Shown here: piece by piece, positions 12,578 through 15,304 of the stretch | Layout of the letters: every line of letters begins with the position of its first letter | How positions within the stretch are numbered: position 1 is the first letter of the stretch | DNA from: Thermoplasmata archaeon | GTDB taxonomy: Archaea > Thermoplasmatota > Penumbrarchaeia > Penumbrarchaeales > EX4484-36 | Length of the DNA stretch: 25,328 nucleotides | NCBI GenBank assembly: GCA_021160765.1 | Contig: JAGHBW010000223.1 | Coordinates: forward strand, 1-25,328 | Reading direction: 5' to 3' | Notes under the pieces: generated by a model | Told to the model about the DNA's origin: nothing | Database searches by the model: none | The model's input: the letters and a program-made list of their open reading frames with translations, nothing else | Position numbers and translations under genes: made by a program

Positions 12578-15304
12578 ATGAATCAACTGGGTGTCAGAGA
12601 GCGCACTAACATAAACCATGTTGTCATTCTCCTCACACTGGCACCTCTTCTTTTATGGGGATCTACCTCCCCCATTGTAATTAATGGATCTGCCACTAAT
12701 ACGAGAGGATTCACTCTCTCTTTTGAGATGGATTCAGAGGGGGTTAATGGAAAAACCTGTTTCGCCATGTATCGCACCTACAACCTCACTGTAAATGTAC
12801 ACGGCATCCCCCCCGGGGAGGTGGAAGCTGTCAATCTAACCCTAGCCCCCTATTCTTACAACATTCACCTTCACTGGAATAGAAGTATGGGGGATTGGAA
12901 GGACAATTCCTCCGATGAGGGGGGATACATAGAATATCTCGGGTGTGAGGTTATTGAAAGCGTGCCTCTCTCACTCTTCAAACTAACCTTTTACGTTCTA
13001 TTTACATGGAACTGGAGTGCTACCGATTACAAAAGCGTTCTGATCAATGTATCTACAGTGGAGGGAGGGGATTCCTTAGAGGTCTCCAATGCATTCAGGG
13101 TGAAAGGGACACTTTTCCTCTCAGGCAGTCTAGAGATCAAGGGTGAGAGGGAAGAAACAGTGTACATTGGAGACTGGGTAAGTGGTAATTATACCCTCCA
13201 CATTGGCGGACTTCGCCTGCGGTATGAGGATCCGATCCTTTATGTCCCCTCACCAGAATACTATAAATTCGTTCTCAACTGTAGTGCGGGAGAATTGTCT
13301 ATTTATGAGCCGCCCCCCGACGGCATGTTGAACATCTCGACTACAACCCCTATTGTGACAGGGCAGAACGTCACTTATACCATATCCATCACAGGCCTTG
13401 CAGCACCCCATCTCAGAAGCCCCTACACTTTCACCTTAAATATTGACTCGACTCCACCAAATCCTGTCAGAAACCTCAGAATGCATCCTGACTGCGCTAC
13501 TGATCCCCCTTCTCTGTTTGATAATGACCTTCAGGTTTATCTTACTTGGGATAGTGGTGGAGACATTGGAAGCGGGATCTCCCAGTATCTTTTAGGGATA
13601 GGGGACGGTCCGCTTAACATATCAGCACATAACAGAATGAGAGTAAACCTACCAAGGGCGGGAAAAATCAACCTTACCATCGCAGCAGTTGACCGCGTCG
13701 GAAATATCGGTCCTGGAACCACTATCAACATCACAGTGGACAACATAGAGCCCAAAGCGACGATCCTTGAACCACTGGAGGGGGTCTGGTACAATACGAC
13801 CTACATAAGGTGCGTGGTTCACTTTGAAGATCTAGGCGGTTCGGGGCTGGATGAAGATTCCATACGATACGCCCTTACGAAAGGTGAGGGGGCTCCTACC
13901 TGGAGGTCCCCCATGGGTGCTTCCTTTGAGAATGGAACTCTTATACAGTATATAACAAACCTTACAGACGGATCTGATAATTTCATAATGTGGCAGATTT
14001 CTGATAACGTTGGAAACGTTCTTCAAACATCTCCACTGGCCATATATGTGGACACAACCCCCCCAAGATTTCTTAACCCTCTGCCGTCTCAGGAACAGAT
14101 AATGCACAATACCTCTGTGAGGTTTATGATAGACGTTGAGGATGACGTAAGAGGTTCTGGATTGAACTTCACAACCCTTGAATATCGGTACAGCACAGAT
14201 GGCCTCACCAATTTTACATCCTGGATAGTTGTTGACAACATCACGGCGCAGGACGACTATCATGCCACCTTGACAGTTTTGCTCCATCTAAGAAGTTCCT
14301 ATAATAATTTCGTACAGTTCAGAGTTAAGGATCTTGCGGGGAACGTTTTGGTCTCCGACGCCTATCAGATAAAGGTAAACACACCTCCTGTAATTGTAGT
14401 TAATGGTAGGAGTGTTGTGGGTGAAGGACCCTCGTTTGAGGTAAAGGAAACAGATAGTCTAACAATAGATGCGTCGGAAACCTATGACCCCGATGGGGAC
14501 CATCTAACTTTTAGATGGAGATCCGATGTGGAGGGACCATACTCGGAAACCTCCCCCATACTTACCCTTCATTCTCTTCCCGAAGGATGCTTTAACATCA
14601 CCCTTGAGGTGGATGACGGCTACGGGAATGTTGTAAGGGTAACGTTTCCTGTGAAGGTTCTTCCCGTTAACGAAACCTCCACAGCCTCAGGAATTCTGGA
14701 AATGCTCTCTAAGTACCTTTCGCCCCCCTTCCTTTACTATATCATCATCGCTGTAGTGTCTTTGATCGTTATTATTACCGTTGTTAGTGCTAAGAGAAGC
14801 AAGAAAGAGGAAGAAGAGGTGGCAGTGGAAGAGAAAGGAGAAGAAGTTCAGGAAATGGAAGAGGTCTCATTTGATCTAGAAGAGGGCGGGGAAGAAGAGG
14901 TGATGATGGAAGTTGAAGGTGGTGGGGAGGAGGTGTTCACCCCCACATTTCCGTTTGGTGCAGCTTACCAGATGGGTGGGTTTGCCCAAACTGGCTACGC
15001 TCAGAATAATTATAGAACAACAACCTCTTCGGCTACTGATCTCTCCGATGAATTTGATTTTGATTATGACCTATACGACGTCCTAGGGGTCTCGCCAGAT
15101 GCGTCAGAAGGAGAGATAAAAAGAGCGTATAGAATCCTTGCCGCCAAATATCATCCCGATAGAGCAGCAGCCTTGGGCATAGAACCTGATGAAGCCAAGG
15201 AGATGATGATTAGGATAAACAAGGCGAAAGAGATCCTGCTGAACCCGGAAAAGAGATCGCTTTACGATGATTACAGGGAGAGTAGCTTCACAGTAGAGGA
15301 CTGA
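12578..15304 (+). CDS. Single-pass membrane protein: extracellular Ig/FN3-like and PKD domains, TM helix, acidic linker, cytoplasmic C-terminal DnaJ (J) domain
   Basis: N-terminal hydrophobic signal; repeats D.TPP...D.GSG(I/L)...(A/S/K)D.VGN/LAGN; PKD IDASETYDPDGDHLTFRW; TM FLYYIIIAVVSLIVIITVVSA followed by KRSKK; J domain YDLYDVLGVSPDASEGEIKRAYRILAAKYHPDR...MIRINKAKEILLNPEKRSLYD with intact HPD (15152-15160). Confidence 0.88.
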   Translation: MNQLGVRERTNINHVVILLTLAPLLLWGSTSPIVINGSATNTRGFTLSFEMDSEGVNGKTCFAMYRTYNLTVNVHGIPPGEVEAVNLTLAPYSYNIHLHWNRSMGDWKDNSSDEGGYIEYLGCEVIESVPLSLFKLTFYVLFTWNWSATDYKSVLINVSTVEGGDSLEVSNAFRVKGTLFLSGSLEIKGEREETVYIGDWVSGNYTLHIGGLRLRYEDPILYVPSPEYYKFVLNCSAGELSIYEPPPDGMLNISTTTPIVTGQNVTYTISITGLAAPHLRSPYTFTLNIDSTPPNPVRNLRMHPDCATDPPSLFDNDLQVYLTWDSGGDIGSGISQYLLGIGDGPLNISAHNRMRVNLPRAGKINLTIAAVDRVGNIGPGTTINITVDNIEPKATILEPLEGVWYNTTYIRCVVHFEDLGGSGLDEDSIRYALTKGEGAPTWRSPMGASFENGTLIQYITNLTDGSDNFIMWQISDNVGNVLQTSPLAIYVDTTPPRFLNPLPSQEQIMHNTSVRFMIDVEDDVRGSGLNFTTLEYRYSTDGLTNFTSWIVVDNITAQDDYHATLTVLLHLRSSYNNFVQFRVKDLAGNVLVSDAYQIKVNTPPVIVVNGRSVVGEGPSFEVKETDSLTIDASETYDPDGDHLTFRWRSDVEGPYSETSPILTLHSLPEGCFNITLEVDDGYGNVVRVTFPVKVLPVNETSTASGILEMLSKYLSPPFLYYIIIAVVSLIVIITVVSAKRSKKEEEEVAVEEKGEEVQEMEEVSFDLEEGGEEEVMMEVEGGGEEVFTPTFPFGAAYQMGGFAQTGYAQNNYRTTTSSATDLSDEFDFDYDLYDVLGVSPDASEGEIKRAYRILAAKYHPDRAAALGIEPDEAKEMMIRINKAKEILLNPEKRSLYDDYRESSFTVED

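Follow-up and report, generated by a model that had tools for sequence, protein, structure and literature searches.

The window analysed here is a stretch of 25,328 nucleotides (nt) from contig JAGHBW010000223.1 of assembly GCA_021160765.1, which belongs to a Thermoplasmata archaeon (Thermoplasmatota, Penumbrarchaeales), and it holds the gene of a 908-residue protein, named P0001, which is predicted to expose a large Ig/PKD-like region outside the cell and to carry a J domain at its C-terminal, cytoplasmic end. The source assembly is a metagenome-assembled genome (MAG) of 1.4 Mb, split into 253 contigs and 80% complete; the genomes compared with it are also MAGs and represent a sample of their groups, and "not found" holds for those searched. 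A preliminary description of this open reading frame (ORF), made from the letters alone, had listed an Ig/PKD ectodomain, one transmembrane (TM) helix, a KRSKK patch, a Glu-rich spacer, a patch rich in Gly, Phe, Tyr and Gln (G/F/Y/Q patch) and a J domain with the HPD tripeptide. All these elements are present, and the TM helix lies exactly at the coordinates given there. Two genes for giant pilin-like proteins follow on the same strand. The features are collected in Table 1.

Table 1. Features of the P0001 gene and of the pilin-like genes downstream of it.
Feature	Position (nt)	Strand	Residues, basis and remarks
TATA-box-like element "tataaaat"	12546..12553	+	about 25 nt 5' of the ATG; read from sequence
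Coding sequence of the J-tailed surface protein P0001	12578..15304	+	908 residues; uninterrupted ORF; stop TGA 15302-15304
N-terminal hydrophobic helix	12614..12661	+	residues 13-28, charged n-region (RER) ahead; sequence and AlphaFold2 (AF2); same type of N-terminus in full-length paralogues
Ectodomain (predicted)	12662..14722	+	residues 29-715; about seven beta-sandwich (Ig/FN3/PKD-like) domains, 23 sequons; Pfam, alignment A1, AF2, Foldseek
Membrane-proximal PKD-like module	14420..14635	+	residues 615-686; "DPDGD" motif with D637/D639; motif columns invariant in A1
Single TM helix	14729..14791	+	residues 718-738; hydropathy, AF2
KRSKK positive-inside patch	14792..14806	+	residues 739-743; directly after the TM helix
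Disordered linker, predicted cytoplasmic	14807..15052	+	residues 744-825, Glu-rich over 744-786; pLDDT 26-33, composition
G/F/Y/Q patch	14936-15013	+	residues 787-812; genus-specific; composition; pLDDT <30; gap in sister-family orthologues
J domain with conserved N-terminal "FDFDYDLYDVLG" lead-in	15053..15286	+	residues 826-903; Pfam part 15068-15268
HPD tripeptide	15152..15160	+	H859 P860 D861; invariant in 17/17 family members (A1); in the modelled DnaK interface
T-run "tctttttt"	15330..15337	+	in the 79-nt spacer, followed by TATA-like "ttatatt" ahead of the next ATG; read from sequence
Giant protein with archaeal type IV pilin N-terminus and CARDB	15384..19868	+	conserved downstream partner; cut by TGA 19866-19868
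Second giant pilin-like paralogue (Pilin_N, CARDB, vWA)	20453..25327	+	runs off the window

The C-terminal end of P0001 is a canonical HPD J domain and a member of the PF00226 superfamily. The Pfam model matches residues 831-897 over its full length (profile positions 1-63 of 63) with an E-value of 4.4e-19 and 68.8 bits, for a cut-off of 27.8, and J domains of the PDB match at 1e-12 to 1e-14, including chain B of 5NRO, which is DnaJ in a complex with DnaK. An AF2 model was built on a 17-sequence family alignment, and in it the J helices span residues 832-836, 844-857, 870-888, and 890-903, with predicted local distance difference test (pLDDT) values of 84-90. The basic residues K848 and R852 of helix II are invariant in the 17 members of the family (alignment A1).

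Three known J-protein types were compared with P0001 and rejected. The class A/B DnaJ model TIGR02349 gives 68 bits against a cut-off of 377 and covers the J part only, and no DnaJ_C or zinc-finger match is found. The DjlA model NF006948 gives 34.3 bits against 162 and aligns over the J part alone, and the TopJ models NF037946 and TIGR03835, with cut-offs of 300-512, reach only 61-62 bits; moreover, P0001 has its J domain at the C-terminus. Since the marks of classes A and B are missing, and the G/F-like patch is a non-conserved element located ahead of the J domain, P0001 is assigned to class C. The preliminary description had read this patch as a G/F region placed in reversed order, which has to be abandoned: it is a disordered stretch of the linker, which is longer in the genus of P0001, and it corresponds to a gap in all orthologues from the sister family f2. 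A look-up of the P0001 tail in the ESM Atlas gives scores of 0.75-0.81, which fall in an uninformative range.

The N-terminal part of P0001 is all-beta in the AF2 model, where residues 46-695 form an unbroken string of beta-sandwiches with pLDDT mostly of 70-90. Pfam matches to PKD, Big_13, and REJ are at or just under the cut-offs; the membrane-proximal module, which is a beta-sandwich in the model, reaches 22.8 bits with PKD (PF00801), for a cut-off of 23.5. Foldseek of the whole model against the PDB returns solely generic Ig/FN3 chains (titin, contactin, and receptor ectodomains), and no specific function of the ectodomain emerged from it. The 687-residue ectodomain contains 23 N-x-S/T sequons, while 2000 shuffled sequences contain 7.5 +/- 2.4 (maximum 17), and the 170-residue tail contains none. 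The TM helix has a mean Kyte-Doolittle hydropathy of 2.95 and extends over residues 716-740 in the AF2 model. In the spacer that follows, about one quarter of the residues (21 among 87) are Glu.

The N-terminal helix is signal-like and may be either a Sec-type signal peptide or a signal anchor. A class III pilin signal is excluded, because P0001 has no match to Pilin_N (PF07790), though both downstream genes have one. The J domain is predicted to be cytoplasmic and the beta-rich part to lie outside, because the N-terminus is signal-like, the KRSKK patch comes after the TM helix, and the sequons are confined to the N-terminal part; this is the orientation that had been proposed before. The same features speak against a J domain on the trans side of the membrane, as in Sec63. 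Lys and Arg residues are more frequent in the 15 positions after the TM helix than before it in 33 of 37 J-tailed proteins.

P0001 has orthologues with the same layout in independent ENA, JGI, NCBI, and Logan assemblies. The orthologue of the sister species (genome G001) has 920 residues, is 58% identical over residues 16-908, and has the same flanking genes. An ENA metagenome contig keeps the same gene order around the J-tailed gene, and a Logan assembly contains a partial copy of it. The best matches of the tail alone are 52-63% identical and belong to proteins of about 700 residues, which occur once per genome in f2. A word-based search with the P0001 tail returns few J proteins, mostly unrelated, and the same search with a sister-family tail returns six further family members, annotated at most as "DnaJ-domain-containing protein 1". 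Alignment A1 contains 12 full-length f2 proteins, from 12 genomes, aligned with P0001, and 17 family members in all. The signal, a conserved N-terminal domain, the Ig and PKD modules next to the membrane, the TM helix, and the basic patch are common to them, as are the lead-in "FDFDY(D/N)LYEVLG" and a "DFSxD" motif C-terminal to the J domain. Invariant residues are Y833, K848, Y851, R852, A855, H859, P860, D861, E875, N881, K884, L887, Y896, and D897. An insert of two domains at about residues 300-500 is found in P0001 and its genus and is absent from the orthologues of about 700 residues. The J-domain tree places P0001, the G001 orthologue, and the 12 f2 proteins in a single group (support 87/81).

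The preliminary description had named an assembly chimera as something that would undo its reading. Such an artefact, or a decayed J domain without function, has practically no probability left: the MAG is indeed fragmented and incomplete, but the same fusion recurs in 16 or more independent genomes or assemblies, the ORF is uninterrupted, and the catalytic and helix II residues are invariant, so that the homologues refute it.

Most f2 orthologues (L129, L130, L132, L134-L136, and L138-L140) have an acidic C-terminus that ends with Trp and one last residue (EDWD, DEWT, EDWN, EVWG), which may be a short docking motif. Acidic C-termini with a near-terminal Trp are also seen on two paralogues that lack the J domain (C66 and C202). 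P0001 has no such acidic end and terminates with ..SSFTVED.

The next gene on the same strand, located 50-150 bp downstream, encodes a giant pilin homologue in all 13 other genomes in which the surroundings of the J-tailed gene were examined, and the window has the same arrangement. These downstream ORFs exceed 1600-2050 residues, often run off the fetched stretch, and are 28-37% identical to the two pilin-like genes of the window over 650-1750 aligned columns. The tie to the adjacent giant pilins that had been suggested for P0001 thus receives real support from a gene pair kept in every genome of the order examined. This pairing is the strongest clue to the function of P0001 and favours the earlier guess that P0001 serves the neighbouring pilins. 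The gene content upstream of P0001 is not kept between the two families, and the f2 genes at that place have no informative Pfam match.

A J domain with HPD docks on ATP-bound Hsp70 and triggers hydrolysis, and Hsp70 then locks onto an adjacent unfolded segment. Membrane J proteins such as DjlA, DjlB/C, Sec63, and Pam18 direct Hsp70 to a given site in this way. The presence of DnaK and GrpE, on which the preliminary description depended, is confirmed in the genome of P0001, which has two Hsp70 genes, each preceded by grpE. Contig C77 carries grpE-dnaK, and its DnaK (P0162, 575 residues) matches the Pfam model in two pieces, with profile positions 74-98 skipped, which fits the shorter form of DnaK typical of archaea and Gram-positive bacteria. 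Contig C86 carries grpE-hsp70-dnaJ, where dnaJ is of class A and the Hsp70 (P0161, 836 residues, L001:1053-3563) has a C-terminal extension of about 230 residues, in which Lys-rich and Glu/Tyr-rich spacers lie between three zinc ribbons of the CPxCG...CPxCG type. Long Hsp70 frames of 670-900 residues accompany a DnaK of about 612 residues in nearly all 37 genomes of the class, and this second Hsp70 may be a dedicated partner of the membrane tails. A search for the ribbon does not set the class apart, since numerous proteins throughout the phylum carry it. Three J-domain genes are present in the genome of P0001: the class A dnaJ, the gene of a small soluble J protein, and that of P0001 itself.

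The J domain (residues 822-908, with the family alignment) was co-folded with P0162 and ATP in three runs, next to three controls. The complex scores 0.67, and the best control scores 0.00. A score of 0.67 is reached by 58 of 80 solved complexes and by 2 of 110 mismatched pairs, a calibration that is rough here, the alignment being our own and ATP being included. The runs share at least 90% of contacts, and the pLDDT of the partner is at least 80. In the modelled interface, P0001 contributes helix II (851-856), the HPD region (859-862), and helix III (874-885), and DnaK contributes residues 183-188, 349-364, the interdomain linker at 388-396, and 451-452. Since a comparable complex has been solved (5NRO), this result shows likeness to a working J domain and not binding.

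P0001 is probably a class C J protein that is tethered to the membrane, brings Hsp70 to its inner face, and is functionally tied to the neighbouring pilin; we infer the recruitment from the known mechanism of the J family and from the model. A Sec-type signal would take about 690 residues of Ig/PKD-like modules to the surface, giving a type I membrane glycoprotein, and the single TM helix would anchor it, with a flexible acidic linker of about 80 residues holding the J domain just beneath the membrane. There the J domain would dock on ATP-bound Hsp70 where the nucleotide-binding domain, the interdomain linker, and the substrate-binding domain meet. This docking would set off ATP hydrolysis, and Hsp70 would then clamp a nearby unfolded chain, so that P0001 would concentrate the activity of Hsp70 on the cytoplasmic side of the membrane. 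Which client Hsp70 serves at this site, and to what end, is speculative. The most likely client process would be the biogenesis of the giant pilin, in its export competence, assembly, or quality control, and contact between the pilin and the conserved ectodomain could take place outside the cell. Surface proteins that remain anchored could bear a J tail of their own beyond the stop-transfer helix; a type IV pilin has to be pulled out of the membrane via its N-terminal helix and therefore cannot carry a C-terminal anchor and a tail. A J-tailed partner dedicated to the pilin would then provide this function in trans.

Several points weigh against this proposal. The T-run in the spacer between the two genes is possibly a partial terminator, and the TATA-like element after it possibly the pilin gene's own promoter, so that the J-tail and pilin genes may not be co-transcribed. 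No gene of a pilus ATPase or platform was found in the J-tail locus; T2SSE-type ATPases number 4-5 per genome, and the nearest are 30-45 kb off on the same contig in two genomes. The other J-tailed paralogues that were checked have no pilin homologue alongside, which means that J tails are not reserved for pilins. J and DnaK are a textbook pair, and the score of the co-fold may stem from complexes already known to the model. Either of the two Hsp70 paralogues is a candidate partner of the P0001 J domain. The topology of P0001 rests on prediction. The J domain is translated last, and a cytoplasmic holdase is less obvious if the clients are exported co-translationally.

P0001 is one of a larger set of J-tailed proteins. 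The number of PF00226 matches per genome is 3-4 in the genus of P0001, 4-12 in f2, 10-13 in families f5 and f7, 3-6 in the other families of the class, and 0-3 in the rest of the phylum (214 sampled genomes). From eleven genomes of the class, 27 further J-bearing frames of more than 600 residues were taken, and all 27 have an ectodomain of 500-1700 residues, one strongly hydrophobic TM helix, a linker of 32-118 residues, and, as the last or nearly last element, an HPD-containing J domain; the N-terminus is signal-like wherever the 5' end is present. The plan of ectodomain, TM helix, linker, and J domain is found in all 40 long J frames examined in the class, including the 13 orthologues of P0001. 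The ectodomains of the other J-tailed proteins contain right-handed beta-helix/NosD, fn3, Big_5/7/13, and CarboxypepD_reg domains. At least three J-tailed proteins are found in the f2 genomes looked at in detail. Each J-tailed group forms its own well-supported clade in the J tree, and they are therefore old, vertically inherited families and not products of recent shuffling. No J tail was found in five sampled genomes from other families of the phylum, with 2-3 J genes each, where the J frames all have 242-390 residues.

The J tails on many unrelated large ectodomains, such as Ig/PKD and beta-helix/NosD, could also act in cis, the J domain recruiting Hsp70 to the long, unexported ectodomain of its own chain, which would stay unfolded in this way for post-translational Sec translocation without SecA or SecB, and being left in the cytoplasm afterwards. 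The separate J clade that co-evolves with each orthologous group is what would be expected if each needs its own J domain, and the only site for a retained cytoplasmic module on an exported protein is after a stop-transfer TM helix. However, the J domain is made last, when more than 700 residues with an N-terminal signal are already out, and it would be useless under co-translational targeting. The strict pairing with the pilin would also be left unexplained, and most homologous ectodomains do without a J domain, which makes chaperoning in cis rather unlikely.

The relatives of the P0001 ectodomain were collected as the 150 best clusters at 50% identity from a library of 1.8 billion proteins. 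A J domain is found in only three of the 150, which are the cluster of the own orthologues (P0003), one form of about 700 residues, and P0036, and the J tail is thus an extra, borne by a minority within a large family of surface proteins. P0036 (679 residues) consists of six J domains in tandem, every one of which matches the J domain of P0001 over the full length. Members of the J-less Ig/PKD family (P0005 and the paralogues C49, C99, and C148 of the same genome) have ectodomains 26-33% identical to that of P0001, with the same membrane-proximal modules and a TM helix near the C-terminus; unlike P0001, they end with a short basic tail (P0005) or a Pro/Glu-rich tail of 105-170 residues, in some cases with a zinc ribbon, and no J domain. 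The TM helix followed by such a Pro/Glu-rich tail is seen in the J-less paralogues C49, C148, C88, C66, C99, C236, C97, and C202 of this genome, of which four carry one to three zinc ribbons of the type present in the second Hsp70. A zinc ribbon of that type ends many frames of 900-2900 residues across the phylum.

These ribbon-ended paralogue tails hint at a docking network, and the J domain might then serve as a binding handle to an Hsp70 scaffold beneath the membrane, comparable to TopJ/DnaK in the terminal organelle of Mycoplasma. Such a structural tether is very unlikely, since contacts between J domains and Hsp70 are transient and coupled to ATP hydrolysis, and the invariant HPD argues for a catalytic use; the binding of ribbons to each other or to other partners is hypothetical.

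Tandem same-strand pairs of J-tailed genes occur in f2 genomes (L112, L113, L116, L117, L119, and L122), where a protein of about 1400-1600 residues (beta-helix/NosD) is followed by one of about 650 or about 1080 residues, each with its own TM helix and C-terminal J domain. The two proteins of such a pair may form heterodimers.

The large ectodomain, one TM helix, short tail, and single effector module of P0001 resemble the layout of a receptor, several paralogues with differing ectodomains are present per genome, as in receptor families, and the tandem pairs would also suit transmembrane signalling. Contact or strain on the ectodomain, perhaps via the pilin, would alter the clustering or accessibility of the J tails, and Hsp70 would be titrated or activated to set off a stress or envelope response, as DjlA does on Rcs in Escherichia coli. 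The conserved neighbourhood, however, contains no known Hsp70-controlled regulator or signalling gene, a single TM helix with a disordered linker of 80 residues offers no obvious conformational relay, and no archaeal precedent is known, and signalling of this kind is quite unlikely.

A broader and more tentative reading, which we consider possible and hold with less confidence than the recruitment of Hsp70 by P0001, concerns the whole class: large surface proteins would be wired to Hsp70 via cytoplasmic tails that end with a J domain or with a zinc ribbon of the kind that the lineage-specific second Hsp70 has in triplicate, and the pilins, unable to bear a tail, would be given a J-tailed partner by the adjacent gene, as parts of a hitherto undescribed Hsp70-dependent pathway by which giant cell-surface proteins are exported, assembled, or turned over in organisms without SecA and SecB.

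Soluble class C J proteins are also found in the class (L142 and L144, genome G009). One is a 471-residue protein with a C-terminal J domain, whose N-terminal part looks like helical repeats by eye, and another is a 200-residue protein in which a zinc ribbon comes after an N-terminal J domain. In all of them the loop that follows HPD is long and helix III reads "xNxAKExLLDP".

In topology P0001 is nearest to DjlA and Pam18, neither of which has a large glycosylated ectodomain. DjlA of E. coli likewise has a C-terminal cytoplasmic J domain and a single TM helix at the inner face of the membrane, and is thought to aim DnaK at membrane clients. Its TM helix is N-terminal, with almost nothing outside the cell, and a TerB-like domain lies in the middle. 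In P0001, by contrast, the TM helix is preceded by a cleavable-looking signal and an ectodomain of about 690 residues, which is predicted to be glycosylated. Pam18/Tim14 and Sec63 are single- or multi-pass membrane proteins whose J domains position Hsp70 beside a translocation site. Pam18 and P0001 share the order of TM helix and C-terminal J domain, which faces the compartment of Hsp70, but Pam18 lacks a large ectodomain. The J domains of Pam18 and Sec63 are on the trans side and pull chains in, whereas that of P0001 would be on the cis (cytoplasmic) side of the export route. The J domains of Sec63 and P0001 match with an E-value of 6e-9, and solely the J domain is homologous. TopJ of Mycoplasma is a class C J protein of the terminal organelle, required for the function of adhesins and tied to the biogenesis or placement of large surface adhesins in a wall-less cell, and NCBIfam TopJ models match the J domain of P0001; its J domain is N-terminal, unlike the layout of ectodomain, TM helix, and J domain in P0001. 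DjlA is listed among the J-domain proteins that work with DnaK, and DjlB and DjlC of E. coli, which work with HscC, are inserted in the membrane and have been proposed to guide a specialised Hsp70 towards the cytosolic parts of membrane proteins (PMC8215388). The lineage of P0001 likewise has a second, unusual Hsp70 paralogue, while DjlB and DjlC differ from P0001 in having an N-terminal J domain, a C-terminal anchor, and no ectodomain.

Archaea usually have zero, one, or two J-domain proteins, and their Hsp70 system is viewed as a simple bacterial import. In the lineage described here, a genome may contain as many as 13 J-domain genes, together with two Hsp70s and two GrpEs. No paper on this layout or on the expansion of J proteins in these archaea was found in a literature search. 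The layout is unmentioned in a 2023 survey of about 280,000 J proteins (PMC10410713), and a 2026 survey of the archaeal DnaK system only notes that some Thermoplasmatota have more than one Hsp70 (PMC12874294). The preliminary description knew of no characterised archaeal protein with this architecture; P0001 is not a single case and belongs to a lineage-wide set of J-tailed proteins. P0001 is of a known kind as a membrane-tethered J co-chaperone, and the receptor-like architecture, the lineage-specific expansion of J domains, and the conserved pilin partner are new.

To our knowledge, archaea have neither SecA nor SecB, and the J-tailed proteins offer a handle on how such cells manage very large exported proteins and pilins, and on whether surface proteins themselves can aim Hsp70 at the membrane. 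The strict pairing of P0001 with a giant pilin-like adhesin provides a client that can be tested. Although the organism is uncultured, the J fragment and both Hsp70s, being small and soluble, can be produced and assayed directly.

The TATA-box-like element ahead of P0001 suggests, from general knowledge of archaeal promoters, that the gene has its own promoter and a leaderless or short-leader transcript. ORFs 12022-12405 (+), 13537-13794 (-), and 13832-14287 (-) overlap a PRC-barrel gene or sit antisense in P0001; one of the three was scanned against Pfam and gave no match, and they are most likely not genes. The pilin orthologue of the sister species is one ORF of 1968 residues, and its residues 1810-1968 are 80% identical to a 160-residue ORF of the window (19953-20435); the first pilin gene of the window is either truly interrupted or affected by a sequencing error at the TGA. 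Other archaeal genes in the window encode LonB, a tRNA-splicing endonuclease, and an archaeal-type PheRS beta subunit, and the closest match of LonB, with 84% identity, is in a MAG labelled Thermoplasmatota.

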